Under the pieces are notes generated by a model, which was not told the DNA's origin, made no database searches, and saw nothing but the letters and a program-made list of their open reading frames with translations. 64,000 nucleotides of DNA. Origin: a virus. Position 1 is the stretch's first letter; every line of letters starts with the position of its first letter. This document shows, one piece after another, positions 26,283 to 59,941 of the stretch. A program made the position numbers and the translations under genes. The stretch covers positions 1-64,000 of the IMG/VR virus record IMGVR_UViG_3300019458_000005. One strand, written 5' to 3'.

Positions 26283-26296
26283 CGTGGTATACCACG
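26283..26296. promoter_or_regulatory. perfect 14-bp palindrome CGTGGTATACCACG (operator-like) in the divergent switch region
   Basis: Read directly from the sequence. It ends 3 nt before the GTG of the first rightward gene (26300). Confidence 0.5.
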
Positions 26297-26299
26297 CAG

Positions 26300-26815
26300 G
26301 TGCCCCCCAAGCGCATCGAGCTCGACCTCAGGCCTGGCGTCGTCGGGGCCGGGCGCTATGTGATCTGTCCCGCGAGCGAGCATCTGCACGAAGAGGCGCT
26401 CGCGTGCGAGGTCTACCCCAGCTCGAACAAGCAGGTCCCGACCGCTCAGTGCGACTGCGAGACCCGGATCTGGGTCTCGCGCCGCGCGAGCATCGATCAG
26501 CTGCTGAAGTTCGAGGACCTGGCCGGGAGCTTCGACCTGGTCCAGCGCCGCCCTAAGCTCGAGCCGCTCGTGGCCGAGAACAAGGACGAAGCGCGCTATG
26601 TGATCTGCCCCCACTCGGGGCGGATGCACCCCACGGTTCACGCGCTCCTGGTCAAGGAGACAGTGGCCAAGCAGCGGAACGGCAAGACCAGGCCGTGCTT
26701 CTACGCCTACTGCGCCAGCTGTTCGAGCCGCTCATTCCTGGGCCCGCGTTGGAAGCGCGGCTTCGGTTTCTCACTCGAGATGGCGATCGCTCGCAACATG
26801 AGCGTCGCCGGTTAG
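26300..26815 (+). CDS. hypothetical Cys-rich protein (171 aa)
   Basis: ORF track. Internal repeat (G)RYVICP(A/H)S. First gene of the rightward arm. Confidence 0.55.
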   Translation: MPPKRIELDLRPGVVGAGRYVICPASEHLHEEALACEVYPSSNKQVPTAQCDCETRIWVSRRASIDQLLKFEDLAGSFDLVQRRPKLEPLVAENKDEARYVICPHSGRMHPTVHALLVKETVAKQRNGKTRPCFYAYCASCSSRSFLGPRWKRGFGFSLEMAIARNMSVAG

Positions 26816-29086: not shown

Positions 29087-29253
29087 GCTGCCGCATCAAG
29101 GACTGGGTTCGCCAAGAGCTCGACGAACCCACTGAGCTCGAGTGCCCTGAGAAGCCCGACGAGTCGGTAGACGGCCACGAGCTCTGCAAGACCCACGCGT
29201 TCGCGGTCCGCGCCTTCGCCCGGAGCTGGGAGCCTGCTACGCTGCCGGCATGA
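29083..29253 (+). CDS. hypothetical protein (56 aa)
   Basis: GTG 29083 forms a GTGA overlap. The stop overlaps the next ATG (ATGA). Confidence 0.4.
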   Translation: MSCRIKDWVRQELDEPTELECPEKPDESVDGHELCKTHAFAVRAFARSWEPATLPA

Positions 29254-30890
29254 CCCAGCCTCGCCCAGTCGTCGCAGCGGCCATGCGTTCGATCTACGCG
29301 CCTCCAGCCACAGCTCACAGCATGGGAGACTTCTTTGACCCGCCGCTCGAGGGGTTGCCCTCGCACCGCCGCAAGGGCGGAGGCGAGGCCGCGCCAGGGT
29401 TCGACTACCGCTGGATCGGCGACAAGGACGTCGGCACCGCCGCCACGATCGACGTGATGAAGAAACTGGCGGTCGACGGGAGCACGCACCCAGGGATCAT
29501 CGCGGCCGCGCAGCGAGTCACGCGTCGCCTCCCTAGCAAGGACTACGAGGCCGAGCTGCGCGCGCTGTTCGAGCTCGTGCGGGAGAACGTGCGCTACAAC
29601 CTCGACCCGCGCGCGATGGAGATGGTCCAACATCCGGCTTACACGATGTTCGTGAGCGGAGTCGGGGACTGCTTCGTGGCCGGGACGCAGGTCCTGCTCA
29701 AGGACGGATACCGCACGATCCCGATCGAGGAGGTGCGAGCTGGGGATCAGATCTGGGGAAAGGACCGCTGGTCTCGCGTCGAGAGGTCCTGGTCCAAGGG
29801 ACGCCTGAGGACCTGGCTCGTTCGGCTGAACAACGGGTCGACCATGCGCCTGACTCCAGACCACAAGGTCTACGTGCTCGATCCTGATTCCGGAGAGGAG
29901 TCGAGGATCACGCTTCGTGAGCTCAGGCCTGGCATGCTGCTCACTCAGCCGGAATCTGTGGCTACCGGGACCGGCGAACAGGACCCGGACATGGCCTACC
30001 TGGACGGGGTCTACCTGTCGGATGGATGGGCCGAGCAGAGCCGGTTCGCGATCTCAGGCAAGGACGGGCACCCGAAAGAGGAACAGAAGCGTAGGGTGCA
30101 GGGGATCTGCTCCCACCGTGGGATCCGTACCAGGTGGGCCAAGAAGTACATCTCGATCCTAGATCGTGATCTCGCCCAGCGCATGCTGAGTATGGGCAGT
30201 AGGGCCTTCAACAAGAAGGCGCTCACAATTGACCTCGAACCGCTCGCCTCCACGCAGCTCCTGTCCGGGATCATGGCCGACTCTGGGCGGAACACTTCCA
30301 GAAAGGAGGCTGAGCTACTAGCTTCGGATCAAAACCTCACAGGCAGGACGTTCACGACCACGTCCTACGCTTTGGCTCTCCAGGTGAGAATTCTCCTCAA
30401 ACAGCAGGGAATCAGCTGCGGAGAGAGCTACGTGCCTGACCATGGAGGCGAGGGTACGCATCCGATCTGGCGACTCCAAACGAGACTTCGTGAGCATGAG
30501 ACCAAAACGCATGTCAAGCGGCTCAAGGTGGTCGAGATCATTCGCGACAACGACCCGCGCGAGTGTTTCGACATCTCCACGGACGACCACTACGTGTGGT
30601 TGCCGCAGGCCGACTGGACGGTCTCGAACTGCGACGATAGCGCGGTCCTCCTGGCCGCCCTCTCGATGGCCGCCGGACACGGCGCGCTCTACCGCACGAT
30701 CCGCACCGACCCGCGTCGCATGGACGAGTTCAGTCACGTCTACCCGCTCCTGGGCTACCGCAACAAGGACGGCGCGTTCTGGTTCTCAAGCGACGTAACC
30801 CACCCGCGCCCCGAAGACGCGCGCTGGGGCTGGGAGGCCCCGCAGGAGGTCCGCTACGGCACGGCCGACTGGATGGTCGCGGGGGTCTAG
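29250..30890 (+). CDS. transglutaminase-like cysteine protease interrupted by an intein
   Basis: The extein reads ..YTMFVSGVGD|CDDSAVLLAALSMAAGHG..FSHVYP..FWFSSDVTHP (Cys-His-Asp transglutaminase-core pattern) once residues 141-460 are removed. Confidence 0.7.
   Translation: MTQPRPVVAAAMRSIYAPPATAHSMGDFFDPPLEGLPSHRRKGGGEAAPGFDYRWIGDKDVGTAATIDVMKKLAVDGSTHPGIIAAAQRVTRRLPSKDYEAELRALFELVRENVRYNLDPRAMEMVQHPAYTMFVSGVGDCFVAGTQVLLKDGYRTIPIEEVRAGDQIWGKDRWSRVERSWSKGRLRTWLVRLNNGSTMRLTPDHKVYVLDPDSGEESRITLRELRPGMLLTQPESVATGTGEQDPDMAYLDGVYLSDGWAEQSRFAISGKDGHPKEEQKRRVQGICSHRGIRTRWAKKYISILDRDLAQRMLSMGSRAFNKKALTIDLEPLASTQLLSGIMADSGRNTSRKEAELLASDQNLTGRTFTTTSYALALQVRILLKQQGISCGESYVPDHGGEGTHPIWRLQTRLREHETKTHVKRLKVVEIIRDNDPRECFDISTDDHYVWLPQADWTVSNCDDSAVLLAALSMAAGHGALYRTIRTDPRRMDEFSHVYPLLGYRNKDGAFWFSSDVTHPRPEDARWGWEAPQEVRYGTADWMVAGV
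29670..30629 (+). mobile_element. intein (320 aa) with LAGLIDADG homing-endonuclease domain
   Basis: Starts CFVAGTQVLLKDG. Block B is LTPDHKV. LAGLIDADG-like motifs YLDGVYLSDGW and LLSGIMADSG. Ends DHYVWLPQADWTVSN followed by the +1 Cys. The central part has lower G+C. Confidence 0.75.
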
Positions 30891-34600: not shown

Positions 34601-34857
34601 CGAGCCCGGTCGACTACATCTTCAGGATGCTCGCGCTGGAGTACCTCGGGCGCGAGGACCTCGTACAGCTCCCGCCTAGCGAGATCGACAGCGAGGGCGA
34701 CACGAAGCTCGACCTGCCGCTGCTCAAGCCAGTACAGCCCAGCGCTACCCGCTTCTCGGACGGCAAGCTGTGCCTGAACTGCGGGAACATTGCGACCCGC
34801 CGGGCCGGCAGCTGCTACGTGTGCGAGGTGTGCTTCTCGCAGACCGGCTGCGCCTGA
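31663..34857 (+). CDS. nrdJ: class II (B12-dependent) ribonucleotide reductase interrupted by a mini-intein
   Basis: GGAGGA upstream of ATG 31663. Typical class II blocks include FNSPVWFN, ACFI, GSGSGTNYSSLR, GGTTRRAA, the active-site NPC..SACNLASLNL (once the intein is removed), APTGTIS and SKTVN. C-terminal CLNCG..CYVCEVC ribbon. Confidence 0.85.
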   Translation: MSAVAAAQGRIQIKRWFTAAARDVYADLEWKKVDVKVGPFEQKDVEAPTFWSESAVGIAASKFFRKAGVPDAGTETSVKQLVERVVQAIRLAGERNGYFGTNAGSADDFMRSKIFEDELRYLLITQRAAFNSPVWFNVGLKEAYGIAGEPAGNWRYDVNTQCVLPTKDSYTNPQSSACFIQSIKDDLMDIAEHVQREMRIFKYGSGSGTNYSSLRAKNEKLSNGGSSSGVLSFLEVFDKSAGAIKSGGTTRRAAKICILDVDHPDIEEFVTWKAREEKKAKALIAAGYESDFNGEAYRTISGQNANNSVRVTDAFMKAVETDGEHALRWRTSGDIANRVSAKALFRTIAQAAWECADPGLHFADTTNRWHTCQDTSEIRAANPCVPGHTLILTRDGDRRIDSLVGQLVDVWNGLQWSAVSPRVTGTNQPLVRVTLNDGAFLDCTPTHQFILADGSRRPAGELAKGEELGKFEMPQVEPGQPRSQSRTVESVESIGTAEKVYCFTEPLNHSGTFNGIVTGQCQEYLFIDNSACNLASLNLVRFQKDDLSFDHEGFAHACRVMFLAQEILVDYASYPTAEICENSHLYRPLGLGYANLGALIMRCGLPYDSDDARQLAAEITSLMTATAYETSCDMAAAMGPFERWKANRKGALSVLEAHYLAFRDLDHDYSPIGRRAVDTWSRVVGKAQLTGIRNAQATLIAPTGTISFLMDCDTTGLEPEFQLVKEKLLAGGGTLYIENRSIRTTLESLGYMNGAVDQIVDHIRMGEGLETCKQLDKAHVPVFDCAVKPPKGTRAIDPMGHIRMLEAIAPFISGSASKTVNCPHETTVEEIEKLYLEAWRRGLKAIAVYRESSKGCQVLTGGKSALLPETKSAQTLPHPVETKRMRLPKKRTGFTQEARVAGQKIYVRTGEYPDGRLGEIFIDMAKEGATMRSMVNTLAIAVSLGLQHGVPLEEYVDVFTYTNFAPNGVVTDHPNIKLCTSPVDYIFRMLALEYLGREDLVQLPPSEIDSEGDTKLDLPLLKPVQPSATRFSDGKLCLNCGNIATRRAGSCYVCEVCFSQTGCA
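32812..33222 (+). mobile_element. mini-intein (137 aa, no endonuclease domain) in the NPC active-site motif of nrdJ
   Basis: ..EIRAANP|CVPGHTLILTRDGD..CTPTHQFIL..VYCFTEPLNHSGTFNGIVTGQ|CQEYLFIDNSACNL. The C-terminal residue is Gln and the +1 residue is Cys. Confidence 0.7.
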
Positions 34858-36240: not shown

Positions 36241-37803
36241 GTGGCCAACGGGATCCTGGTCAATAACCTGATCGCCGCCGGGCTCGTCCGTCCGCCGGCC
36301 TGGCAGTCGGCCGCGATGCGCGGCTTCGGGATGGGGGGCCTGGGGAAGGGTCCGGCCGGACCCAGCCAGGAGGCCGTGTCCGCCTCCCAGCGGACCTACG
36401 AGACTACCTACCAGGCGATCGTGTCCCTGATCAACCAGATCCAAGGCGCAGCGCGCGAGGTCGATCAGGCCAGCGGCGGCCTCGACGAGCCGGCGGTGCG
36501 CTCGCTGGTCGACGACGCGATGCTGATCTCGCAGGACGCGCAAGACCGCCTCTCGGAGGCGCGCTCGATCTACGAGCTCGAGCAGGGCTGGGTCGAGTCG
36601 GCCGTTGCCGAGCAGGCGCACGGCGGGTGGGCCTTCGGGCGCGAGTTCGTGCTCACCGCGGCCGGCGCGAGCGCGCAGGGCAACCGCTCAGGCGTGCCGC
36701 TCATGGCCTGGAACAAGGACCAGATCCTGGGCGCGGCCGCCAAGGCCCTGACCTCGATCCAGCGCGGCCTGGCCACGAACCTGGGCCAGCTGCGCGGGCT
36801 GCGCGAGGCCGTCCTGACCAAGGTCAAGCTCACCAAGCAGGCTGCGGCGCAGCAGGCCACGATCGACCTGCGTCAGCAGCAGGAGCAGGCCAAGGTCGAT
36901 CAGCTGGCCGCGATCCGCCAGAAGATCGAGGAGGACAAGCTTCGCCGTGAGGAGGAGGCCGCGACCCGAGCGCAGCTGTTCGCCGAACAGCAGGCGCAGC
37001 GCGCGCAGGAGCTCGAGGAGCGCCGGCAGCAGGCCGCGATCGACAGCGAGAACCGCCGCATCGCGATGCAGGAGCAGCTCGAGCAGTCCCGCATCCGCGC
37101 CGAAGAGCAGCGCCTCAACGCGCAGCTCCAGGCCGAGGCGCAGTCGGCCGCGCTCGAGCAGGCCCGCCTTCAGCAGGAGGTCCAGACCTCGCAGGCTGCC
37201 TCGCAGTTCCAGCTCCAGCTGGAGCAGCAGCGGCAGGCCGCGCTCGTCCAGGCCGAGCTCTCGAAGCTCATGCCTCCTCCGCCACCACTCTATGGGGCGG
37301 GCGCGCTCGCAGTACCCGGCTACGGGATGCCCCAGGGCGCGATCCCGCAGCCCATGATCCCGCCGGGCTGGGACGCCTACTCGGCCGCGGCACAGGCCGG
37401 GGCCACGGCGGCGTTCCCGCAGGTGTGGTCGCCGATCGGCCCGCAGGAGCTCCCCACCATGGCCATGCCGGCCCCTCAGGGCGGCTGGTCGCCCGGAGGC
37501 GAGATGTTCGGCATGGGCGCCATGGCTCCCGGGACGTTCTCTCCCGCCTCGGCGGGTCGGATCCAGCCGACCGGCCTCGAGTCGGTAGCCAACTTCCTGA
37601 GCACGTTGGCGGCTCCGGCCGCGAATGTGATCGACGCGGTCCGCGGGACTCCGCGAGCGCCGGCCATGTCGTCCTCGAGCTCGGGTCCGGACCTCGGGAA
37701 CCTGCTCCTGGCCGGCGTCGCGATCGCTGGCGCGATCTACGTGGGCAAGAAGGTCCTGGGCGGCAAGAAGACGAGCCGCTCCCGCAGCCGGCGGCGCCGG
37801 TAG
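36241..37803 (+). CDS. Gln-rich coiled-coil protein with C-terminal membrane anchor and Arg tail
   Basis: GGAGG 5 nt upstream of the GTG. About 170 aa of Q/E/R/A coiled coil. Ends LGNLLLAGVAIAGAIYVGKKVLGGKKTSRSRSRRRR. Confidence 0.7.
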   Translation: MANGILVNNLIAAGLVRPPAWQSAAMRGFGMGGLGKGPAGPSQEAVSASQRTYETTYQAIVSLINQIQGAAREVDQASGGLDEPAVRSLVDDAMLISQDAQDRLSEARSIYELEQGWVESAVAEQAHGGWAFGREFVLTAAGASAQGNRSGVPLMAWNKDQILGAAAKALTSIQRGLATNLGQLRGLREAVLTKVKLTKQAAAQQATIDLRQQQEQAKVDQLAAIRQKIEEDKLRREEEAATRAQLFAEQQAQRAQELEERRQQAAIDSENRRIAMQEQLEQSRIRAEEQRLNAQLQAEAQSAALEQARLQQEVQTSQAASQFQLQLEQQRQAALVQAELSKLMPPPPPLYGAGALAVPGYGMPQGAIPQPMIPPGWDAYSAAAQAGATAAFPQVWSPIGPQELPTMAMPAPQGGWSPGGEMFGMGAMAPGTFSPASAGRIQPTGLESVANFLSTLAAPAANVIDAVRGTPRAPAMSSSSSGPDLGNLLLAGVAIAGAIYVGKKVLGGKKTSRSRSRRRR

Positions 37804-37818
37804 AAGCGAGCGCGCTCC

Positions 37819-38700
37819 ATGCTTCTCACGCTCGATCAGCTGGAGCGGCTCGAGTCGCTCAAGCAGCTCGCCAAGCGAGATCCGCGCTGGGCCATGGCGC
37901 TCGGGCACCGGAACGCCGGCTACACCGGCATGGGTGCCTGGCACGCCAACCACGGGGCGATCTTGCCCGCGCCCATGAATCCTCTGGAGACCAGCGGCGT
38001 AGGCCTGCTTGACCCGCAGGCCTACGCCGTGTTGCCAGCGGCCGCGAACCTGGTGATCAACCCGCCTCGAGCGGTGAACCAGATCAGCGGCATGGGCGCG
38101 CTTCCGGCTATGCGCACGGGCGCGCTCTCCCCGGCAGCCAAGGGAGCCGCGCCAACCAAGCCGAAATCGAACTCGGACTTCGACAGGCCGGTGCCGGACT
38201 CTACCAAGGCCAGCTACACGAGCGCGGTCAAGCAGCTCGATGGCATGGACCCAGGCCCCGAGAAGGTCGCGATGGCCAACTCGCTTCGGAGGCAGCTCGA
38301 CGGGCTGCCGGACTGGGGTCCGGACACGAACAGCTACTTCTTCAAGGACTACGACAGCTGGCTCGAGCTCAGTCAGCGCGTGGACGCGGCCCGGATGTCC
38401 TACGTCCCCTCGGGCGCACAGAGCCCGCTCGGACCCGGCGCAGGAGACGGGGGCGGTGGTGGCGGAGGGTTCGGCTCGGCGCTCGACTCGATCGGGAGCT
38501 TCCTCTCCACGATCTCGGGCCCGGCGGCCGACATCATTCGCTTCTCGCGGAACCAGCCGTCACAGCCCAGCTTCGTGGCTCCTCCGCCTGATCCAGGCTT
38601 CCCGTGGGGGAAGTTCGCGATCGGGGTTGGAGTGGCCGCCGGGGTCACGCTGGCTCTTCAGGCCACGAAGAAGCCCGCACACAAGGGAAGGAGCCGCTAG
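37819..38700 (+). CDS. tail-anchored membrane protein (293 aa)
   Basis: Ends FAIGVGVAAGVTLALQATKKPAHKGRSR. Shares the module L(E/D)S(V/I).(N/S)FLST...PAA(N/D)(V/I)I with the preceding protein. Confidence 0.65.
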   Translation: MLLTLDQLERLESLKQLAKRDPRWAMALGHRNAGYTGMGAWHANHGAILPAPMNPLETSGVGLLDPQAYAVLPAAANLVINPPRAVNQISGMGALPAMRTGALSPAAKGAAPTKPKSNSDFDRPVPDSTKASYTSAVKQLDGMDPGPEKVAMANSLRRQLDGLPDWGPDTNSYFFKDYDSWLELSQRVDAARMSYVPSGAQSPLGPGAGDGGGGGGGFGSALDSIGSFLSTISGPAADIIRFSRNQPSQPSFVAPPPDPGFPWGKFAIGVGVAAGVTLALQATKKPAHKGRSR

Positions 38701-39029
38701 TGCCATCGCTCACCGAGACCATCGGCCTGGCGCGCATGGAGCAGGAGAAGGTCAAGATGATGCTCTCGGCCGCCTCGGCCGCGAGCGCCATCGGCCGCCC
38801 TGCCCAGGCCGCCGCTATCGGCTCCCAGGCCGCGCAGCAAGCCTCAGTCGGCGAGAAGCTGATCATGAAGGTGGCCAGCGCTGGCCAGGCTGCGTTCGCC
38901 GACGAGGCTGCCGAGATCATGCGGCCAAAGCGGTCGCCGCTGCCTTGGCTGATCGGCGGTGTCGTCGGACTCGTGGGCCTGGGGATCCTGTGGAGAAGGA
39001 GCCGGAGCTCCAAGAAGCGCAAGAAGTAG
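38700..39029 (+). CDS. tail-anchored membrane protein (109 aa)
   Basis: GTG 38700 overlaps the upstream TAG. Ends LPWLIGGVVGLVGLGILWRRSRSSKKRKK. Confidence 0.6.
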   Translation: MPSLTETIGLARMEQEKVKMMLSAASAASAIGRPAQAAAIGSQAAQQASVGEKLIMKVASAGQAAFADEAAEIMRPKRSPLPWLIGGVVGLVGLGILWRRSRSSKKRKK

Positions 39030-39033
39030 CTCC

Positions 39034-39390
39034 ATGCTCGCCGACCTGACCTACCGCATGCTCCAGTCGAAGCAGGTCCAGCCGGCCCTCCAGGGAGTCG
39101 GCCTGGGGATCCTGCCCGCGATCCTGGGCGTGCTGGGGGCGGTCGGGCAGGTCGGGACCTCGCTGGCGAGCCCGTTTCTTGAGGAGGCCTCGAAGGGCGA
39201 ACAGCGTGTGGTCGACGCGGCCGCCAGGACATCGATCGCGCAGGAGCTGCAGGTCAGAGCTCAACAGAAGGCGCTCCGAAACCAGCAGCTGGCGCTCGTG
39301 GGCGCCGGACTCCTGGTGATCGGAGGCGTGGGGTACTTCTTCTACCGGCGGCGGAGCCGCTCAACGACCAAGAAGCGGGGGCGCAAGTGA
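39034..39390 (+). CDS. membrane protein with C-terminal anchor (118 aa)
   Basis: Hydrophobic GVGLGILPAILGVLGAVG, plus a C-terminal LALVGAGLLVIGGVGYFFYRRRSRSTTKKRGRK. Confidence 0.6.
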   Translation: MLADLTYRMLQSKQVQPALQGVGLGILPAILGVLGAVGQVGTSLASPFLEEASKGEQRVVDAAARTSIAQELQVRAQQKALRNQQLALVGAGLLVIGGVGYFFYRRRSRSTTKKRGRK

Positions 39391-39701
39391 GCGGCATGGG
39401 CTACATCTCGGCGGGCTACCTGGCTGGCGCCGCCCCCTCGGGCTTCGGCTACCTGGGACAGGATCAGCGGCAACCGCAGTTCATGCAGTCGCAATCGCAG
39501 CAGACCAGCCAGTCCACGTCCGTGAACGCCTCGGCGACCGGCGGGTCGGTGACCGGCTCAGCCAACGTGGGCAGCCGTGTTGGTCCCACCACCTACTACG
39601 GCGGGGGAGGCGGGGGAGGCCAGATCAACTGGGTCCCGATCGCGCTGGGTGTAGCGGTGGGCGTGGCGCTCATGATCTACCTGAGGAGCCGAGGCAAGTA
39701 G
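39387..39701 (+). CDS. tail-anchored membrane protein (104 aa)
   Basis: GTGA-coupled start. Ends INWVPIALGVAVGVALMIYLRSRGK. Paralogue of the next gene. Confidence 0.6.
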   Translation: MSGMGYISAGYLAGAAPSGFGYLGQDQRQPQFMQSQSQQTSQSTSVNASATGGSVTGSANVGSRVGPTTYYGGGGGGGQINWVPIALGVAVGVALMIYLRSRGK

Positions 39702-39703
39702 CC

Positions 39704-39991
39704 ATGCCGCTCTCGGTCGAGGCCATGCAGAAGCTGCAGCACATGTCTGGCTTGCGCCAGATGGGGCGGTTCTCTGGCCTCGGTCAGAGCGCCGCTCAGC
39801 AGTCCTCGCAGCAGACGAACCAGGCCACGACCGTCAACGTCTACGCAGGCGGCGGCAACATCAGCGACTCGGCCAACGTGGGCAGCTCGGTCGGGAAGGT
39901 GATCCAGGCCGCGCAGCTGAACTACGTCCCGATCATGCTCGGTCTCGCGGGAGCCGCCGCGCTGTGGCTCCTGACCGGGAGGCGGCAGTGA
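39704..39991 (+). CDS. tail-anchored membrane protein (95 aa)
   Basis: Ends LNYVPIMLGLAGAAALWLLTGRRQ. Shares QQ.SQ.T...T.VN..A.GG....SANVGS.VG with the preceding protein. Confidence 0.6.
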   Translation: MPLSVEAMQKLQHMSGLRQMGRFSGLGQSAAQQSSQQTNQATTVNVYAGGGNISDSANVGSSVGKVIQAAQLNYVPIMLGLAGAAALWLLTGRRQ

Positions 39992-40308
39992 GGCTCAACG
40001 CTCCAGCGACCAACCGCGGCATGTTCGTGATCGCGATGCCAAGTCGCGGATCCAGCGGTCTGGGAGCTTCCGCGATCCAGGAGATGTTCGACAAGCTCTT
40101 CAACAAGAAGAAGTCGAAGGCGCGCGAGGAGAAGCGCGATCTCGCGGTCAAGAACTACGGCGAGACCGAGCAGGTCGCGCAAGCCGCCACCTTCCAGATC
40201 CAGCAGGCCTCACAGAAGAACGTCATGACCTACCTGGTGGCCGGAGCAGCCGCAGCCGGAGCGCTGGTTCTCCTGGCTGAGCTGCTCTCGCCCCCGAGGG
40301 GACGCTAG
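39988..40308 (+). CDS. tail-anchored membrane protein (106 aa)
   Basis: GTG 39988 forms a GTGA overlap. Ends MTYLVAGAAAAGALVLLAELLSPPRGR. Confidence 0.55.
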   Translation: MRLNAPATNRGMFVIAMPSRGSSGLGASAIQEMFDKLFNKKKSKAREEKRDLAVKNYGETEQVAQAATFQIQQASQKNVMTYLVAGAAAAGALVLLAELLSPPRGR

Positions 40309-40309
40309 C

Positions 40310-41317
40310 GTGCAGGCCGAACAGGAGCTCTCTGACGCCGAGTGGCTGCGGAGGATCCGGCTCAAGAATCGCCAGGAGCTCGGGCTCGAGGGCCCGCAGG
40401 GAGTCGCGACGATGGACGGCAACGTGAACGGCATCGGCGACTTCATGTACATGAACGCAGCCGCGGGGGGCGTGCCCAGCCCCGAGCAGGACCTGCTCGC
40501 GTACTACGCCGGTCGCCAGGGCGGGAACGCGGACGGCTGGCAGCCGTCCATGATCGACCCCAGGCAGGGCACCTACCACCAGATGCAGATGCCCACCCAC
40601 GCCAACTACGTCGGCCAGGAGGTCGCCGGACAGGCCGTCTCAGGCCTGGGCTACATGGGCGCGGTGGGCGTCTCGGCTGATCAGAAGGCTCAAGCCACCC
40701 TGGCGGTCGAGGGCGCGATCCGCGAGTCCGACCTGCTGTCTCAGCAGACGAACAACGTCTCGGCGGCGCGCCTGATCCTCGAGGCGCAGCGCTCGAGGCT
40801 CTCGAGCCTGAACTGGACCGACAGCTCGTGGGGCGTCGTCGGGCCGCGCTACTCCAGCCGCGCCGACCTGCTCAAGAAGCTCACCGAGGCACAAGCGCGC
40901 GTGATCGCCCGCTCGGGCGCGGTCCGTGAGGACGGCAAGGCGATCTTCGACCCTCGCTCCGTCAACCCGACCACCGGCAAGGCGCGCGTGGACAGCCAGA
41001 TCGGCGCAGCCGCTGGGTCGCTGGTCCAGTCCGGCAAGGAGACTGCGGCCGAGGTCGGTGGCCTCCTGGGAAGCCTCTCCAAGGTCACACAGTTCTTCCT
41101 GGGCTCTCCAACCAGAATCCTGGTCACGACCAGCATCGGACTCGGGGTCTACGGCCTGGTCTACACCGACCTAGGCAAGAAGATCAGCCGGAAGGTCTTC
41201 GGTAGCAAGAAGAAGAACCCTCCGGCTCGTAACCGCCACAAGAAGGCCGCGGTCCGCAAGAACCCCAGCCGCAAGCGGCGCAAGCGCTACCACGAGAACG
41301 ACTCGAGCGACGAGTAG
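40310..41317 (+). CDS. membrane-anchored protein with long Lys/Arg tail (335 aa)
   Basis: ILVTTSIGLGVYGLVYTDLG followed by KKISRKVFGSKKKNPPARNRHKKAAVRKNPSRKRRKRYHENDSSDE. Confidence 0.65.
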   Translation: MQAEQELSDAEWLRRIRLKNRQELGLEGPQGVATMDGNVNGIGDFMYMNAAAGGVPSPEQDLLAYYAGRQGGNADGWQPSMIDPRQGTYHQMQMPTHANYVGQEVAGQAVSGLGYMGAVGVSADQKAQATLAVEGAIRESDLLSQQTNNVSAARLILEAQRSRLSSLNWTDSSWGVVGPRYSSRADLLKKLTEAQARVIARSGAVREDGKAIFDPRSVNPTTGKARVDSQIGAAAGSLVQSGKETAAEVGGLLGSLSKVTQFFLGSPTRILVTTSIGLGVYGLVYTDLGKKISRKVFGSKKKNPPARNRHKKAAVRKNPSRKRRKRYHENDSSDE

Positions 41318-53595: not shown

Positions 53596-54888
53596 ATGAT
53601 CGAGTGGTGGGCGCTCGCGAACCCCCCGCGCCGGAGTCGGCGCCGTCGTCGCCGCTCGAATCCGCTCCCCGCAGGCTGGGGCGGAACCAAGAAGCCCAAG
53701 AAGGCCAAGAAGCGCTCCGGCAAGTCGGCCGCCAAGGCCCGCGCTGCTCAGCAGCAGCGCGACCGCGAGTCGCGCGCCAAGAACCTGCTCTCGGCCTGGA
53801 ATCGCGCTTCGAAGAAGAAGAAGCGCAAGAAGAGCAAGGCGACCAAGAAGTCCAAGAAGAAGTCGGCGCGTAAGGTCGCGCCGAAGCGCAAGAAGAAGGC
53901 CGCGCGTTCGCGCCGCGGCGCTCAAGGAGGGCCCGTGGCCAAGAAGAAGCGGAAGAAGTCCGGCAAGAGGAAGAGCTCCAAGCGCTCGGCCGCCGCCCGC
54001 AAGGGCGCGCGTACCAAGGCGCGCAACAAGGCTAAGCGGAAGGCCGCCGCCAAGAAGGCCGCCCGCAGCCGCGGGAAGAGCGGCGGGGGAGTGCGCAAGG
54101 CCGCGCGTCGTCGCGGCCGGAAGCGCCCGGCTCGCGCCAAGGTCCGGAAGACCCGAGGCGGGAAGGGCCGCATCGTCTACGCCAAGGGCAAGCGCCTGCG
54201 CTGGCGCCGCACCGGCCGCCACTCAGGTCGTCTCGTGATCCGCGGAAATCCGGGCGGGTCAGGCGGGATCCAGGGGAACCTCAAGGCCCTCCTCAAGCCC
54301 GAGCTGTACATCGACGCGGCCCAGGTCGCGCTCGGGCTCGGTGGAGCGCTGGCGCTCCCGGCGCTCCTCGCCCAGAAGATGGGCAAGCCGATGCTCAACC
54401 GCGGCCTCGTGGGCGTGGCGGCGACCGCCGTCTCGTCCGCGGTTCTCGCGGCGGCCGCGGCCGCGGCCGGACAGCGCGCGCTCTCCGGTCGCCTGTTCGC
54501 CGGTGGCGTGCTCGCGGCGGTTGTCAAGCTCGCCGTGCAGGTCATCCCGCCGTCGCTCCTCCAGAAGATCCTCCCGCTCAACGAGCTCAACCGCGGCGCG
54601 ATCGCTGCGGCTCCGGCCGCGAGCGGTGCGGTCAACGGGATGGGCTACTACGGGAGCGGCGTGGGCAACCTCGTGCCCTACTCCGCGATCAACGGCATGG
54701 CCGACCTGCTCACGCCCGAGCAGATGATCGCAGGCGAGGCGTTCTACGGGCGCATGAACGGCATGGGTCGCACCGGCGACTACCTGCAGCTGGGCATGGG
54801 GGACTACCTCCAGTTCGGCCAGGCGGCCAACGTGCCCCAGTTCACGTCCGTGCTCGACAGCTTCAACCCCGGGGGTGAGGCCTTCTAG
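53596..54888 (+). CDS. H1/protamine-like Lys/Arg-rich domain fused to a multi-helix hydrophobic domain
   Basis: GGAGA upstream of ATG. About 200 aa of KKPKKAKKRSGKSAAKARAA..KKKKRKKSKATKKSKKKSARK..RRRGRKRPARAKVRK. Then hydrophobic helices (AQVALGLGGALALPALLA; GLVGVAATAVSSAVLAAAAAAAG; LFAGGVLAAVVKLAVQVI). Confidence 0.7.
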   Translation: MIEWWALANPPRRSRRRRRRSNPLPAGWGGTKKPKKAKKRSGKSAAKARAAQQQRDRESRAKNLLSAWNRASKKKKRKKSKATKKSKKKSARKVAPKRKKKAARSRRGAQGGPVAKKKRKKSGKRKSSKRSAAARKGARTKARNKAKRKAAAKKAARSRGKSGGGVRKAARRRGRKRPARAKVRKTRGGKGRIVYAKGKRLRWRRTGRHSGRLVIRGNPGGSGGIQGNLKALLKPELYIDAAQVALGLGGALALPALLAQKMGKPMLNRGLVGVAATAVSSAVLAAAAAAAGQRALSGRLFAGGVLAAVVKLAVQVIPPSLLQKILPLNELNRGAIAAAPAASGAVNGMGYYGSGVGNLVPYSAINGMADLLTPEQMIAGEAFYGRMNGMGRTGDYLQLGMGDYLQFGQAANVPQFTSVLDSFNPGGEAF

Positions 54889-55135: not shown

Positions 55136-55801
55136 ATGGGTCCTCAAGGCATGCCGGTCGTCGCGCTGCCCACTCCCGGAGTGGTCGGCGGGCGTCCTCG
55201 CAAGCAGCCTCTCGTCGACACCGAGGTGATCGGTGGGACGGCGGCTGTCCCGGCGGAGATCAACATCTACGCCAACTTCAGCCAGTTCCGCATCGCGCCC
55301 ATCGTCAACACGAACATCACCCAGACGAAGCAGTACGGGCGCGATACGAACCTGAAGAGCTCCGGCGGCGGCACCTTGCCGCAGTCGTCGTTCTTCTACT
55401 GGTACAAGAGCCGGATCGTCCTCAAGACGTACCTCACCGCGCTCAACACCAGCGGGAACTGCGTCGCGTACGAGGAGATCCAGCGCCTCAGGTTCCTGGG
55501 CGCCTGGTTCTTCAACTTCCAGCAGACCGAGCTGGTCGTGATGCCGCTCGACGAGCTCCCCTCGGGCGTCGGCTCGGCCGCCGGCTCGACCAGCTCGATC
55601 AACAACATCAACGCCCCGAGCCTCACCTGGGGCCCGTGGGACGGTCGTGACATGACCGTCTCGGGTCGCCCGGTTGGCATCGAGGCGCTGCAGCAGTTCA
55701 ACGTGAACATCAAGTGGCCGCAGACCACCGGCTTCACGCCGACCCTCGACTACTTCATCTCGTCGCGTCTCGACGGCCTGCTGCTCCTGGGCATCAGCTA
55801 G
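55136..55801 (+). CDS. beta-rich structural protein (221 aa); candidate single jelly-roll capsid/penton protein
   Basis: AAGGAAAG upstream of ATG 55136. No helix-rich or low-complexity regions. Followed by the strongest hairpin in the window. Confidence 0.5.
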   Translation: MGPQGMPVVALPTPGVVGGRPRKQPLVDTEVIGGTAAVPAEINIYANFSQFRIAPIVNTNITQTKQYGRDTNLKSSGGGTLPQSSFFYWYKSRIVLKTYLTALNTSGNCVAYEEIQRLRFLGAWFFNFQQTELVVMPLDELPSGVGSAAGSTSSINNINAPSLTWGPWDGRDMTVSGRPVGIEALQQFNVNIKWPQTTGFTPTLDYFISSRLDGLLLLGIS

Positions 55802-56022: not shown

Positions 56023-57084
56023 GTGCAGGCTCAGCTCCACGTCGGCGAAAACGCCTGGAACCCCTACGCGAACGTGCCCTTGCTTATGCGCGGGCCCGAT
56101 CCGCGCACCGGCAAACAGAAGACCTACGTCAACCGCGGCAAGTACTCGCAGAAGTTCTGCGAGTTCACCACGCAGACCTACCCGATCACGGTGCCCGCCA
56201 ACGCGCGGAACCGGACCTCGATCGTGCCTCAGGCAGACCAGGGCGGCGCGGGCGACGTCGAGTTCTACCAGTGGTGGTCGGCCTCGACCGGGCAGTACGC
56301 GGTGATGCTCACGAACCTGGCCATGGGCGGGATCAAGCTCATGAACCAGCCGGTCGAGAGCTCGCTGATCTTCGGCAACGGCCCCCAGCTCCCCGGAAAG
56401 CTCCTCCAGCCGGTGTTCGTGGCCGCGACCGACGCGCTCGACGTCGAGCTCACCGACCTCTCGGGCCTCTCGAACGACGTGCGCCTGGTCGCGCATGGCT
56501 GCCAGATCGTCGACCCCATGAACACCCTGGGCGTCACCCAGCAGCAGGTTCGGGCCGCGATGTACAACCCGAACGTCGTCCCCTACTGGCTCACGTTCGA
56601 CTCGGGCTCGCAGGTGACCGTGGCCGGTAGCGCCTCGGGCACCGAGTTCACGATGACCATCCCCTCGAACGGCGACTTCAACAGCTGGTCGCTCGTGGGC
56701 CGAACCACCGCGCCCACCGCTCTCACGGTCGAGATCTTCGAGGGAAACCGCCGCAGGTTGATGAACGGCCCGATCCGCTTCGACCAGTGCATGTCGACCA
56801 CCGGCCAGACGGCCTCGCTGAACGCGGCCTCGATCCCGTTCGTGTGGAACTTCTCGCACACGTTCGAGCGAAAGACCCAGCTCGTGTTCCGCTTCACCGA
56901 CACCAGCGCCTCGCCCCAGGTGATCTCCTGCGCGCTATGGGGACAGATCGTCTACTACGATCAGAGCCCGCCCTCGCTCACTGCGATCAACAGCCTGCGC
57001 GGAGTAGCACAGGCCATGGCGCCGGCTTACGCGGCGCCGTCCGGCCAGATGGTCGGCATGCGCGGCCTCCGGGGCCGGCGGTAA
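56023..57084 (+). CDS. beta-rich structural protein (353 aa) with internal tandem duplication; candidate double jelly-roll major capsid protein
   Basis: GAGAGG 7 nt upstream of GTG 56023. The two halves share IKLMNQPV..(L)TDLSG..GCQIV and RRLMNGPI..(F)TDTSA..GQIVY at similar spacing. Confidence 0.45.
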   Translation: MQAQLHVGENAWNPYANVPLLMRGPDPRTGKQKTYVNRGKYSQKFCEFTTQTYPITVPANARNRTSIVPQADQGGAGDVEFYQWWSASTGQYAVMLTNLAMGGIKLMNQPVESSLIFGNGPQLPGKLLQPVFVAATDALDVELTDLSGLSNDVRLVAHGCQIVDPMNTLGVTQQQVRAAMYNPNVVPYWLTFDSGSQVTVAGSASGTEFTMTIPSNGDFNSWSLVGRTTAPTALTVEIFEGNRRRLMNGPIRFDQCMSTTGQTASLNAASIPFVWNFSHTFERKTQLVFRFTDTSASPQVISCALWGQIVYYDQSPPSLTAINSLRGVAQAMAPAYAAPSGQMVGMRGLRGRR

Positions 57085-57093: not shown

Positions 57094-58317
57094 GTGCTCA
57101 ACCACCGCGTCTCGCCGCCAGTGCCGTTCCACCTGCTTCCGCCCCACATCCAGGCGGCGATCGCGGCTCGCGCTCAGCGCGTGAACGGTCCGTCCGGTCC
57201 TCCCGGCGGAGGCACAGCTCCGGGAGGTATGGCTGGCCTGGGGAACTTCGGCATCGCTGGCTCGCCTGAGCCATGGTCCCTGCCTCCCTACGCTCAGCGC
57301 CTTCCGCTGGTCGCTCGAGCCGGCCAGCTGGGACAGGCCGGCGCGGCCCCGGAGCTCCTTCCGGCCGGCCCGGACGCGGCCAACCTCCAGGCCGCCGATC
57401 CGGTTGGCCCCGCGAACCCTTGGGCCGGGACGCCGCTCGAGGACCTGCCGCTCCTTGAGGCGCTGAAGCTCGCGTCGCGTCAACTGGTGTGGATCCAGCA
57501 CCCGTCGCCGATCGACAGCAAGCCGCTCCTGGGCACGCGCGAGCAGTACACCGAGACGGCCGTGATCGCCCCGCCCACCGACATCGCTTCCGCTGGCGCG
57601 ACCGCTGGAGCTCAGGCCTTGGCCGATGGCTACAGCTCGAGCTCGGGAGAGGTGACCGCGGTTCTCACGCCAGCCAACGCCGCCGACTTCGAGACGATAT
57701 TCCAGTTCACTGTCCCTCCGGGGCGCGCGTTCCTGGTGTGGTCGGTGGCCGGCGAGTGCCACGACTACCTGGGCATGGCGAACGTGATCAAGTTCCGGGT
57801 CCGGGTGGGCACGACCCTGATCGTCCCCGAGACGCAGCTGGGCTTGATCGGCGCGCCCTCGAACCAGCTCGTCGTGCAGGAGATGGCCTACGAGAACCAG
57901 ACGGTGTTCTTCGAGGGCCGAAACCTCGACGGCGAGTCCGGCACGCTCGTGACCGCTTACCTCCTGGGCTGGAGCTTCCCACTCAAGGGCACCGGCCTCG
58001 ACTGGGGCGACCTCTCGAGCAGCGGCAGCTCGACCTGGGGCGAGCGCGAGGGACCCGAGGCCATGGACCCCGGCGAGCCGGTTCGGATCCCGCTCTCGCA
58101 GGCTGCGCCAGGGAACCCACGCTACGGCGGCCTCCCGGTGTGGACTCACCCGCTCAACGGCGAGGCCGTATGGGCGCCGGTCCAAGGCATCCCTGGCCTC
58201 TCCGACCCGCGTTGGGCGGGTTACCGCATGACCTGGACCGGGACCATGTTCGTGGTCGATCAGCACAGCCAGCCGCTGCCTGGGTTCGACCTGGCCACGA
58301 TGACGATCTACGGGTAG
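57094..58317 (+). CDS. structural protein (407 aa): Gly/Pro/Ala-rich N-terminus plus beta-sandwich-like C-terminal domain
   Basis: AAGAGG upstream of the GTG. FQFTVPPGRAFLVWSVAG..VIKFRVRVG..NQTVFFEGRNLDGESGTLVTAYLLGWSFP. Confidence 0.55.
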   Translation: MLNHRVSPPVPFHLLPPHIQAAIAARAQRVNGPSGPPGGGTAPGGMAGLGNFGIAGSPEPWSLPPYAQRLPLVARAGQLGQAGAAPELLPAGPDAANLQAADPVGPANPWAGTPLEDLPLLEALKLASRQLVWIQHPSPIDSKPLLGTREQYTETAVIAPPTDIASAGATAGAQALADGYSSSSGEVTAVLTPANAADFETIFQFTVPPGRAFLVWSVAGECHDYLGMANVIKFRVRVGTTLIVPETQLGLIGAPSNQLVVQEMAYENQTVFFEGRNLDGESGTLVTAYLLGWSFPLKGTGLDWGDLSSSGSSTWGEREGPEAMDPGEPVRIPLSQAAPGNPRYGGLPVWTHPLNGEAVWAPVQGIPGLSDPRWAGYRMTWTGTMFVVDQHSQPLPGFDLATMTIYG

Positions 58318-58320
58318 CTC

Positions 58321-58686
58321 ATGAGCGTCTCGATCGGACACTTCTGGCTGCGAGTCAAGGACGTGAGCGCCTCCGAGCGCTTCTACGTACTCCTGGGGCT
58401 CGAGCTGGTCGAGCGCCTGCGAAATGTGACGGTGCTCGGGGCACGCGGCCACTCGCATGTGTGCCTCCAGAAGAGCCTGACCACCCAGCCGCGTCGGCTT
58501 CCGATCGACTTCATGGTCGACAACCTGGAGGAGACGCTGTCCGTATTCAAGCAGGCCGGGTTTGCTCCTTCACAGATCGAGCGCGACCGCGAGTCCGACC
58601 ACCGCTCGTTCGTGGTCAAGGACCCCGACGGACACGAGGTCGAGGTGATCTCCAGCCATATCCCGATCCCACAGGCAGTGGAGTAG
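58321..58686 (+). CDS. VOC (glyoxalase/bleomycin-resistance/dioxygenase) family protein
   Basis: IGHFWLRVKDVSASERFYVLLGLELV.. ..SFVVKDPDGHEVEVI, the classic VOC pattern. Confidence 0.65.
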   Translation: MSVSIGHFWLRVKDVSASERFYVLLGLELVERLRNVTVLGARGHSHVCLQKSLTTQPRRLPIDFMVDNLEETLSVFKQAGFAPSQIERDRESDHRSFVVKDPDGHEVEVISSHIPIPQAVE

Positions 58687-58689
58687 CCC

Positions 58690-59466
58690 ATGCCCATTCA
58701 GATCATGGAGGGGCCAAGCCTCTCGGTGGTGTTGGCTGGCGACGGCGCGGCCAACACACCTCCATCTCTGCGCTGGCGAGTGGTGGGGTGCGCGCGCCTG
58801 GTCGGACTCCTCGAGGTCACGGCTCCAGAGCTCACTCCGGCGCTGGTGATCTCGGACAAGGACTACACGCAAACCGAGATCATCGAGCTCCAGCAGGACG
58901 ACGAAGGGAACTACGTCATCGGGGCCGAGCTCACGATGCCATACGTGGAGCTCTTCCCCGGCGGAGTCACGCTGGTCAAAGGCACGCCAGATCCCGGCGA
59001 CTACACCGACATGTCCTTCACCGCGCAGATCCTGCCTGGATCTGGCGCAGGGTCAGGAGGCGGAGGTGGCGGAGGTGGCGGTGGCGTCGCCTACGAGGTC
59101 GAGAACGACTTCTCGGGCGCGATCGCGCAGAACGCACAGACCGTAGCCGAGCTGGCCCTCCAGGCCCGCAAGGTCACGATCGAGCTCATCTCGCTCACGG
59201 CTTCCGACCTGCTCGACTACGAAGTTCTGATCTACGACGCAGCTGGCGGATCAGCCAGCGACTTCGTGGGCAAGGTGAGTATGTCTTCTGCGAACGCTGT
59301 GCTAGTCGTGGGCGACTCGCTCTACATGTACGAGGCCACATGCTCGATCTCGTACATCGCGCCCCCGCTGGGAGATCAGAGCCTGTGGGTCGGGCTCTCG
59401 CCCAGGAGCGGAGGGAAGAACGCCAAGACCTGCCTCACCAAGGTCACCTACCGGACAGGGGCCTAA
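58690..59466 (+). CDS. structural-block hypothetical protein (258 aa) with poly-Gly linker
   Basis: ORF track. GSGAGSGGGGGGGGGG separates two beta-rich halves. Confidence 0.6.
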   Translation: MPIQIMEGPSLSVVLAGDGAANTPPSLRWRVVGCARLVGLLEVTAPELTPALVISDKDYTQTEIIELQQDDEGNYVIGAELTMPYVELFPGGVTLVKGTPDPGDYTDMSFTAQILPGSGAGSGGGGGGGGGGVAYEVENDFSGAIAQNAQTVAELALQARKVTIELISLTASDLLDYEVLIYDAAGGSASDFVGKVSMSSANAVLVVGDSLYMYEATCSISYIAPPLGDQSLWVGLSPRSGGKNAKTCLTKVTYRTGA

Positions 59467-59469
59467 GCC

Positions 59470-59901
59470 ATGGCCGCACTCACCCAAGCTGTCGAGGCCT
59501 ACGCGCGCGGCTGCCAGAACGGATCGAACTCGGTCACCACGACTCCGTACCGCACCGGACTCACAACCGCCGACTCGTTCAACCTCACCTCGCCTCTCTC
59601 GGGCGGAGCGTTGCTCAAGAAGGTCGGCGGGCGAACCACCGCCTACGTGGCCGGGTCGTTTTCGGCGGCCAGCGCCACGGTGGTCCTGGTCGTCGTGTTC
59701 TACGGCCAGTCCGGGAGCTCCACGGGCGCGATGATCGGTCACGCCAAGATCACGCTCACGGCCGACGCGAATCTCTTGCGCGACGGCACGCGCTTCGACG
59801 CGCCGCCAATCCCGGTGGATTGCCTCTCGGAGAACTACGAGGTCCGCGTGTACAGCGCACCCAGCTCGGGCAACGTGCAGCTGTTCACCTGGGTCGAGTA
59901 A
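59470..59901 (+). CDS. structural-block hypothetical protein (143 aa)
   Basis: ORF track. Tightly packed after the previous gene. Confidence 0.55.
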   Translation: MAALTQAVEAYARGCQNGSNSVTTTPYRTGLTTADSFNLTSPLSGGALLKKVGGRTTAYVAGSFSAASATVVLVVVFYGQSGSSTGAMIGHAKITLTADANLLRDGTRFDAPPIPVDCLSENYEVRVYSAPSSGNVQLFTWVE

Positions 59902-59941
59902 CGCAAAAAACAGCGCAGGTCAGCGCGAGGAGTAGTCAGCC

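Follow-up and report, generated by a model that had tools for sequence, protein, structure and literature searches.

What does a virus do with eight consecutive genes whose products all end in a hydrophobic segment and a lysine- and arginine-rich tail? The question is raised by positions 36241-41317 of a stretch of 64,000 nucleotides from IMG/VR virus record IMGVR_UViG_3300019458_000005 (hereafter the window), which makes up 64 kb of a circular metagenomic virus genome with a G+C content of 65%. We propose that the eight genes, P1 to P8, are probably an operon for the internal-membrane proteins of a tail-less, icosahedral, temperate phage with a jelly-roll capsid, distantly related to the isolated phage SSIP-1. 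This proposal, and with it the likeness to internal-membrane viruses drawn in an earlier, sequence-only reading of the DNA, is supported because the genome lacks tailed-phage genes, encodes a jelly-roll capsid candidate and a match to the SSIP-1 protein gp34, keeps synteny with its relatives, and gives its cluster proteins a design seen in SSIP-1 and PM2.

The gene models of the cluster are consistent between methods, as a codon-usage caller and the independent annotations of two public assemblies give the same eight genes on the + strand. High third-position and low second-position G+C is confined to the called frames; for P1 to P4, whose frames alone among the eight were listed by the filter on third-position G+C (GC3), this value is 0.81-0.90. 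The true starts of P3, P4, P5 and P7 lie downstream of those of the longest open reading frames (ORFs). Adjacent genes are separated by gaps of 0-15 nt or overlap by 1-4 nt, which argues for one operon, and the eight C-termini quoted in the sequence-only reading are all present in the sequence. The genes and their products are as follows.

36241..37803, + strand: P1, 520 aa; hydrophobic segment at residues 485-501; tail GKKVLGGKKTSRSRSRRRR (+10)
37819..38700, + strand: P2, 293 aa; segment at 266-282 (marginal); tail TKKPAHKGRSR (+5)
38700..39029, + strand: P3, 109 aa; Ala/Gln-rich N-terminal part; segment at 81-97; tail WRRSRSSKKRKK (+8)
39034..39390, + strand: P4, 118 aa; segments at 21-45 and 86-102; tail FYRRRSRSTTKKRGRK (+9)
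39396..39701, + strand: P5, 101 aa; Gln/Ser/Gly-rich with a G7 run; segment at 80-96; tail RSRGK (+3)
39704..39991, + strand: P6, 95 aa; Gln/Ser-rich; FSGLG at residue 25; segment at 75-91; tail GRRQ (+2)
39988..40308, + strand: P7, 106 aa; SSGLG at residue 24; charged helix; segment at 83-99; tail LSPPRGR (+2)
40310..41317, + strand: P8, 335 aa; VSGLG at residue 112; segment at 270-286 (marginal); 49-aa tail (+14)

In each of these proteins the best 17-residue Kyte-Doolittle window scores 1.55-2.40 and lies 4-49 residues from the C-terminus. We scored a gene as positive for a C-terminal anchor when its last hydrophobic window reached at least 1.5 with at most one charged residue inside and was followed by a tail of at most 50 aa with a net charge of at least +2. 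All eight cluster genes were positive, compared to 3 of the remaining 102 genes of the genome (Fisher p=4e-10), and those three are weak cases; the architecture of the cluster is far from chance. The sequence-only reading's claim of eight consecutive genes with a C-terminal hydrophobic segment and a Lys/Arg tail was thus borne out, and two of its further statements require adjustment. A single hydrophobic helix per protein, no more than about 50 residues from the C-terminus, describes seven of the eight, but P4 has two, with a 40-aa charged helix between them. Likewise, most tails are short and strongly basic, but those of P6 and P7 reach only +2, and the tail of P8, the only one with acidic residues (19 K/R and 5 D/E), is 49 aa long and has an acidic end. 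On a crude Hessa-type scale the segments of P4 to P7 score well (0.2-2.8 kcal/mol), that of P7 best of all.

P1 runs from an N-proximal FGMGGLG through a Gln-rich coiled coil and a Pro/Gly-rich region to a second motif, MFGMG, and a FLSTLAAPAANVI motif. P2 carries two xGMG motifs, a Gly run and the FLSTISGPAADII motif that it has in common with P1, to which it is similar over about 100 aa at the C-terminus (motif FLST..PAA..I, E 5e-7); P5 and P6 are paralogs with 41% identity. Searches of Pfam, PHROGs and PADLOC with the eight proteins returned sub-threshold noise only, and neither tblastn of the eight concatenated proteins nor blastn of the locus matched any of 50,697 phage genomes. Scans of IMG/VR with P8 and P2 found no match, and a PDB sequence search with P8 gave noise only. 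The sole match to P8 in a large protein database was P0022, a homolog with 57% identity on a 2.8-kb contig.

We then compared the locus with three relatives recovered via their capsid proteins, L006, L012 and L010. Two of them carry a comparable cluster, and their gene orders are given here with protein lengths in aa.

L006 (63.5-kb contig; 49% capsid-protein identity): Transglut_core-88-534-99-363-86-91-206-229 (L5 gp82-like)-460-221-capsid
L012 (42% capsid-protein identity): Transglut_core-78-484-100-114-121-185-483-897-373-220-capsid

In all 11 cluster proteins of the two relatives the C-terminus consists of a hydrophobic segment and, after it, a basic tail that is short in most of them (for example ...FFLMKKK, ...GKRRRRRR, ...GRRRRRGRR, ...LLLLLKR, ...GRKKAGGRRRGR, ...GKRKRRRRR and ...RTKTRRRR), the weakest basic tails being those of the L006 206-aa and the L012 121- and 185-aa proteins. 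Several correspondences are detectable by phmmer: P1 has a homolog in the L012 484-aa protein (2e-12), P4 in the C-terminal part of the L006 363-aa protein (7e-11), and P8 in the L006 206-aa protein (5.5e-6). The L006 534-aa protein is a counterpart of P1 by common motifs, with no phmmer match, and the L012 114-aa protein has the same design as P4. P3 has counterparts by position in the L006 99-aa (...GKRRRRRR) and L012 100-aa (...GKRKRRRRR) proteins, and the remaining cluster proteins are likewise counterparts by position. The architecture of the cluster is conserved while its sequences diverge. In both L006 and L012 the cluster lies inside a morphogenetic block, and in the window this block is split by two insertions, one placing a ribonucleotide reductase and its neighbors between the protease gene described below and P1, and the other separating P8 from the capsid genes by about 12 kb of accessory genes. 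The capsid module is also present in L010; the cluster was not within the 20 kb of its sequence examined.

The gene that stands directly upstream of the cluster in these relatives provides a link to an isolated virus.

29250..30890, + strand: homolog of transglutaminase-like (papain-fold) cysteine proteases or peptidases, with Intein/Hint Pfam matches

An intein of about 315 aa sits exactly before the catalytic Cys (GVGD|C...SN|CDDS), and the splice junction GVGD|CDDS aligns with GCGDCDDM of the homolog in L006. The L006 and L012 homologs are both intein-less, match Pfam Transglut_core and lie directly upstream of their clusters. When the spliced protein was compared by tblastn with the 50,697 phage genomes (2.3 Gb), the only match was SSIP-1 gp34 (E 3e-6, 31% identity over 134 aa), with a phmmer E-value of 1.5e-9; gp34 is annotated as a 'structural protein'. 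As a matter of sequence homology, the link between this gene and SSIP-1 gp34 is firm.

The capsid genes lie further downstream, in a module at 53.6-62.1 kb of the window. Two of them bear directly on the type of virion.

55136..55801, + strand: beta-rich partner of the capsid gene, 221 aa; conserved upstream neighbor; candidate small capsid protein or penton
56023..57084, + strand: candidate major capsid protein, 353 aa, with two beta-sandwich (jelly-roll-like) domains by AlphaFold2 and Foldseek

AlphaFold2 modeled the 353-aa protein as two eight-stranded beta-sandwiches with a helix between them, at a mean predicted local distance difference test (pLDDT) of 69 and a predicted template modeling score (pTM) of 0.67. 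Foldseek matched the model in the PDB to peptidylglycine hydroxylase, a known two-sandwich fold, and to the capsid proteins of Singapore grouper iridovirus (SGIV MCP), PRD1 (P3), PM2 (P2) and Sulfolobus turreted icosahedral virus (STIV), with probabilities of 0.69-1.0 and template modeling (TM) scores of only 0.2-0.43 (probability 1.0 and E 2e-4 for PRD1 P3, 1.0 for SGIV MCP, and 0.99 with TM 0.43 for PM2 P2). Among predicted viral structures (BFVD), the top match, by a wide margin, was I1ZBI0 (256 aa, E 1.2e-9, TM 0.51/0.67), with giant-virus proteins ranking after it. In many hidden Markov model (HMM) matches within the family, the first sandwich of one member aligns with the second of another, which argues for an internal duplication. 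On the strength of the model we assign the protein with moderate confidence as a major capsid protein of the PRD1-adenovirus structural lineage; the model would fit either a side-by-side double jelly roll or a stacked large capsid protein of the P23-77/SSIP-1 type and cannot tell the two apart. To our knowledge, an internal membrane is present in every characterized prokaryotic virus whose capsid is of the vertical jelly-roll type.

The capsid family is diverse and is not covered by any Pfam family. The 353-aa protein has 10 relatives in an indexed database, and an exhaustive profile search recovered 523 representative clusters, defined at 50% identity, at E <= 1e-3 and 228 at E <= 1e-10. Of 86 members sampled, none matched a Pfam family related to capsids. 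Against PDB sequences, neither the capsid profiles A1 and A3 nor the profile of the 221-aa neighbor, A2, gave a real match, and profile A1 found no match in IMG/VR or in a first scan of GTDB genomes. A scan of JGI metagenomes with A1 returned one 10-kb locus, on which the cluster is not present, and tblastn of the capsid protein against the phage genomes found no match.

The absence of tailed-phage genes can be judged on a complete genome. Exact-protein look-up matched the window to ENA k141_894885 (81,808 bp) and Logan SRR7811943_8512 (81,695 bp), and joining the window with L003 and L004 yielded a closed circle of 81,667 bp. The ENA assembly equals this circle plus 141 bp, exactly its assembly k-mer, the two assemblies break at different points, and the window spans the ends of the Logan contig. 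Because the three break differently yet close to the same 81,667 bp, we regard the genome as circular. Family scans and precomputed Pfam annotation of all its proteins of at least 200 aa found no terminase, portal, HK97 capsid or tail families.

Beyond the hydrophobic tails, the cluster proteins have in common a short motif, G[L/M]G, which occurs 11 times in their 1677 residues versus 17 times in the 23,233 residues of the rest of the proteome (about 9-fold enriched). Composition-preserving shuffles of the cluster gave 2.35 +/- 1.5 occurrences, and none of 2000 reached 11. The motif lies close to the N-terminus in P1, P2, P6 and P7 and at residue 112 in P8, and P5 has the variant FGYLG. Orthologs in L006 (2730-8995) and L012 (443-9071) have it at equivalent positions: the first site of P1 and its orthologs reads RGFGMGGLGKG, ITGGLGKGEG and RLEGLGALG, and the second MFGMG, FGISGLG and FGLRGLG. 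In adenovirus, the virion cysteine protease cuts short Gly-containing sites of the consensus (M/L/I)XGX|G. The G[L/M]G contexts resemble this consensus in about 16 of 26 cases, in which M, L, I, F or V stands four residues before the last Gly. Judging from these contexts, G[L/M]G is a possible cleavage or docking motif. Cleavage is attractive because a cysteine-protease homolog adjoins the L006 and L012 clusters and occurs in SSIP-1 virions, and the transglutaminase-like protein is a candidate maturation protease for these motifs.

A further protein, encoded just upstream of the capsid genes, combines the motif with an extreme basic domain.

53596..54888, + strand: protamine-like membrane protein, 430 aa

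Its first 235 residues hold 97 K/R and 3 D/E (+94) and are followed by three hydrophobic segments and a C-terminal domain with NGMG and LGMG. Homologs were found by phmmer in L010 and L012, and the L006 460-aa protein is its counterpart by position, a ...GGE(A/S)F end and a similar charge pattern; in all three relatives the gene stands immediately before the capsid genes. These counterparts carry +98 (L006), +76 (L012) and +66 (L010), and G[L/M]G also occurs in the C-terminal domain of all three. Between the basic part and the G[L/M]G part there is one span in all cluster proteins but P4, which has two, and there are three in the 430-aa protein; this odd parity suggests that the membrane has one basic face and one G[L/M]G face. 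By its composition, the +94 domain is most easily explained as DNA-condensing, which together with the span parity would place the tails on the DNA side. The suggestion in the sequence-only reading that the basic tails face packaged DNA gains indirect support from this parity, but it conflicts with the positive-inside rule discussed below.

We next compared this arrangement with known membrane-containing and jelly-roll viruses, applying the same C-terminal anchor scan to SSIP-1, PM2 and PRD1. SSIP-1, which has been isolated, is a phage without a tail but with an internal membrane; it has two capsid-protein types, a capsid of T=49 and a circular double-stranded DNA genome of 44 kb (PMC6356626, PMC6260650, PMC4958249). 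Its late module encodes 25 proteins, 10 of which have a C-terminal hydrophobic segment, including the structural proteins gp34, gp41 and gp53. It resembles the present genome in its long run of proteins with one terminal hydrophobic segment, several with an N-proximal G[M/L]G, in the two-segment design that gp53 shares with P4, and in a Gln-rich coiled-coil gene upstream of the transglutaminase-like gene. It differs in its smaller genome (44 kb versus 82 kb), its short and barely basic tails (QSSK, SKKLSA, YSKKGQ), its lack of a protamine-like membrane protein, its two paralogous 210-aa proteins (gp45 and gp46) where the present genome has one of 221 aa, and the absence of significant sequence similarity in capsid or membrane proteins. 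Comparison of the capsid profiles with SSIP-1 gp44 to gp48 produced weak matches, with no signal for gp45 and gp46.

The corticovirus PM2, whose genome is also circular, has virion proteins of exactly this design. Its P3 (104 aa) and P8 (75 aa) consist of a soluble N-terminal part, one C-terminal hydrophobic helix and a short basic tail, ending in ...LLVLGLVMRGNK (...VLGLVMRGNK; tail RGNK) and ...VVIGLFLVIKRK (...GLFLVIKRK; tail KRK), respectively; gp j is also of this design, and PM2 P8 is Gly/Ser/Gln-rich, as are P5 and P6 of the cluster. PM2 differs in its 10-kb genome, in tails of +2 to +3 versus +8 to +14, in having few anchored proteins, interleaved with capsid genes, in the presence of the packaging ATPase P9, and in the lack of sequence homology. 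The tectivirus PRD1 has many small virion membrane proteins (P18, P20, P22, P32, P34, P16, P7/P14) near its double jelly-roll capsid gene, but they are mostly N-terminally anchored and without basic tails, and its genome is linear with terminal proteins and encodes packaging ATPase P9. Adenovirus, with its core and cement precursors pVI, pVII and pX, offers a jelly-roll capsid virus with highly basic DNA-condensing proteins, but it has no membrane, and its protease belongs to clan CE and does not have a transglutaminase-like fold.

From these comparisons we infer that the proteins are present in the virion, that it contains lipid, and how the proteins are oriented, bind DNA and are cleaved. 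Each cluster protein would be anchored in a viral vesicle through the hydrophobic helix at its C-terminus. Its N-terminal portion, rich in Gln, Ser and Gly or forming a coiled coil, would lie on one face of the bilayer and bridge to, or template, the capsid shell, a role comparable to that of PM2 P3 and P6, which are thought to register capsomers on the membrane as transmembrane proteins (PMC6356626). On the other face, the Lys/Arg tails and the +94 domain of the 430-aa protein would neutralize and tether the packed DNA; in PM2, a patch of phage-specific membrane has been proposed to contact the DNA during concurrent vesicle assembly (PMC6356626). G[L/M]G, on the non-basic side, would probably be where the transglutaminase-like cysteine protease docks or processes the proteins.

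Several observations weigh against this proposal, and topology presents a real puzzle. The positive-inside rule would keep the +94 domain and the tails of +8 to +14 in the cytoplasm; the charge of the tails argues against translocation across an energized membrane, and if the vesicle pinches off the cell membrane, as in the account given for PRD1, its lumen is equivalent to the periplasm. The N-terminal domains, at up to 484 aa, lack a signal peptide. The tails may be translocated despite the rule, the basic face may instead be the capsid face, or the membrane may form around the DNA in another way, as discussed for PM2. On the same Hessa-type scale P1, P2, P3 and P8, whose segments are rich in Gly and Ala, score only marginally (3.9-5.9 kcal/mol), and the cluster of this genome lies 12 kb away from the capsid genes, beside nucleotide-metabolism genes. 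The capsid model is only moderate (pLDDT 69; TM 0.35-0.43 to PRD1 and PM2), and AlphaFold2 of the 221-aa partner gave a pLDDT of 42 and no meaningful fold match. I1ZBI0 is probably SSIP-1 gp47, with which it agrees in length (256 aa), and hhalign of the 86-sequence capsid profile against gp47 was weak (E 1.2e-3, probability 20%). There was no significant homology between the cluster and the membrane proteins of SSIP-1 or PM2, and hhalign of P1, P3, P4 and P8 family profiles against all SSIP-1 proteins except the 2319-aa gp43 gave no match above 5% probability. The P-loop structural protein gp40 of SSIP-1 has no counterpart here, as BLAST and phmmer between the proteomes found no homolog. No FtsK/HerA-type packaging ATPase was found in the genome or its relatives by Pfam, PHROG, NCBIfam or Walker-A scans, and no convincing P-loop was found outside the helicases, the sole unassigned Walker-A-like site being a poor one in an 814-aa protein for which PDB and NCBIfam searches gave no packaging ATPase. 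Within this lineage of jelly-roll viruses, the FLiP and Odin groups lack such an ATPase too (PMC5894146).

The main rival explanation, which we consider unlikely, is that the eight are non-structural proteins of the host membrane, serving holin- or antiholin-like lysis, superinfection exclusion or membrane remodeling for replication, and do not enter the virion. Small one-segment proteins with a highly charged C-terminus recall holins, the basic tails fit the cytoplasmic side by the positive-inside rule, and the cluster follows genes for ribonucleotide reductase and deoxyribosyltransferase and not the capsid genes. However, no endolysin adjoins the cluster (Pfam and PHROGs scans found no lysin family there), a separate candidate lysis pair lies at 62107-63373, and eight members, including proteins of 520, 335 and 293 aa, exceed the needs of a lysis cassette. 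The clusters of L006 and L012 sit inside the morphogenetic module, virion proteins of SSIP-1 and PM2 have the same design, and no PHROG, Pfam or PADLOC family matches the eight.

Less probable still is a lipid-free, adenovirus-like particle with a jelly-roll capsid, in which the hydrophobic basic-tailed proteins and the protamine-like protein are core or cement proteins matured by a virion protease at G[L/M]G. The resemblance of the motif's contexts to the adenovirus protease consensus, the very large basic domains and the marginal score of several hydrophobic segments would all fit such a particle, but in P4 to P7 and the 430-aa protein the segments are well formed, with 17-20 hydrophobic residues between flanking W/Y and K/R, and the analogs in PM2 and SSIP-1 come from lipid-containing virions. 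Moreover, the prokaryotic vertical jelly-roll viruses treated in one review all contain an internal membrane (PMC6356626).

We regard it as very improbable that the genome is that of a tailed phage or of an integrative element of non-viral nature, with structural genes diverged beyond recognition and a cluster that encodes ejection, inner-capsid or conjugation-type membrane proteins. The genome does encode Dda-like helicase, SNF2, ThyX, GP88 and L5 gp82 domains typical of tailed phages, an integrase, and a 715-aa Gly-rich fiber-like protein. Nevertheless, the readily detected terminase large subunit and portal are missing from the closed genome among the proteins of at least 200 aa scanned, the protein of the capsid module is predicted to be a jelly roll and not an HK97 fold, and the only phage with a homolog of the transglutaminase-like protein is the tail-less SSIP-1. 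DNA of 65% G+C does contain many long false ORFs on all strands, but that the cluster is an artefact of such ORFs is already refuted by the ortholog architecture, which is kept in L006, L012 and P0022; in addition, the codon-position signal follows the called frames only, and two public pipelines make identical calls.

If the eight genes are indeed an operon for internal-membrane proteins, the class of protein they encode is itself already known from PM2 and SSIP-1. What appears undescribed is the lineage with the size of its genome, tails of such high basicity, a membrane protein with a protamine-like domain, the G[L/M]G motif and the intein-split protease gene; we found no paper in the literature uniting double jelly-roll, transglutaminase and phage. 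Genome sizes of 7-18 kb are reported for the double jelly-roll viruses of prokaryotes found in metagenomes (PMC5894146), and the 44 kb of SSIP-1 is the largest prokaryotic example tabulated (PMC6260650). A closed 82-kb genome with this capsid type would thus break the tight size limit assumed for prokaryotic internal-membrane viruses with jelly-roll capsids. It has a ribonucleotide reductase and a ThyX of its own along with helicases, methyltransferases, an integrase and two inteins, and it bears on the question why certain jelly-roll viruses become large. The basic-tailed anchored proteins and the protamine-like protein offer a hypothesis for how a long genome could be condensed against a viral membrane, and the conflict between their basic segments and the positive-inside rule makes the formation of internal viral membranes in bacteria testable. 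The occurrence of G[L/M]G beside a conserved cysteine-protease homolog suggests an adenovirus-like maturation system, which, if true, would be a bacterial counterpart of the core-and-protease arrangement of adenovirus.

A bolder reading, which we put forward only tentatively, is that the window belongs to a lineage of bacterial viruses, tail-less and membrane-containing, that is large, diverse and not yet described; the membrane would have a dedicated DNA-condensing layer, made up of the three-span protamine-like protein (+94) and the anchored proteins with basic tails, and its proteins would be matured at G[L/M]G by a protease of transglutaminase fold. Were this so, its genomes of 60-82 kb would be about twice the size of that of SSIP-1 and about 5-10 times those of the metagenomic double jelly-roll viruses, and the lack of a recognizable FtsK/HerA-type packaging ATPase would point to a different way of enclosing the genome.

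The remainder of the capsid module comprises the following genes, which have homologs in the same order after the capsid gene of L010.

57094..62089, + strand: rest of the capsid module, encoding 407-, 258- and 143-aa proteins and a 715-aa Gly-rich repeat protein
58321-58686, within the capsid module: glyoxalase-fold gene, by Pfam and PHROGs

Pfam and PHROGs searches with the proteins of 57094..62089 found nothing but this glyoxalase. The 715-aa protein (59942-62089, + strand) consists nearly entirely of Gly/Ala/Thr/Ser repeats (GGAVT.., GNAT..), ends in a domain free of repeats, and is likely a beta-helical spike or fiber of the vertex. The 221-aa partner of the capsid gene has two paralogs, one of 101 aa (63717-64022, - strand, running past the end of the window) and one of 286 aa (80866-81726, - strand, in the closed genome; L004 12941-13801), and all three have the N-terminal arm motif GRPRK.PL.D in common. 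Immediately downstream of the module, a 79-aa protein (62107-62346, + strand) has an N-terminal hydrophobic segment followed by a lipobox-like VLMGC, and a 177-aa protein (62840-63373, + strand) has a hydrophobic segment and a coiled coil. By eye this pair is spanin- or holin-like, and the lysis genes are probably here rather than in the cluster.

Elsewhere the genome codes for SNF2 and Dda-like helicases, a PD-(D/E)XK exonuclease, Rad52, ThyX, an HNH endonuclease, a cytosine methyltransferase and a Mom-like protein, a class II ribonucleotide reductase and a nucleoside deoxyribosyltransferase, an integrase and a 1152-aa glycosyl- and methyltransferase, together with phage proteins of the GP88 (mycobacteriophage), L5 gp82 and DUF6884 types. 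Scans found no tRNA and no Rfam families, and around the operon no sigma-70 promoter and no excess of terminator-like sites. The ribonucleotide reductase (31663-34857, + strand) appears by eye to contain a mini-intein just before the conserved NPC(G/Q)E cysteine, with borders ANP|CVPGHTL...IVTGQ|CQEY and ending in Gln, not Asn; the Pfam barrel match covers 674 residues for a 523-position model, and no intein family is reported. In a pattern scan of GTDB genomes (L020-L099), the nearest cellular ribonucleotide reductases were from Bacteroidota, mostly Chitinophagaceae, at 48-55% identity. Chitinophagaceae have a G+C content well below 65%, and Bacteroidota/Chitinophagaceae were rejected as host on account of this misfit with the 65% of the present genome. 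The host of SSIP-1 falls in the same wider group as these matches.

Transcription in the window diverges at 25400-26300, with nearly all genes at 1-25.4 kb on the - strand and those at 26.3-63.7 kb on the + strand, and the AT skew switches sign at about 26 kb. Positions 18175-19669 form 1.5 kb without genes that is C-rich on the + strand (GC skew -0.2) and contains many degenerate direct repeats of 25-60 nt as well as 10 of the 11 TGCCTGCC sites of the window, all on the + strand. We consider this region an iteron-like array and a candidate replication origin or partition site.

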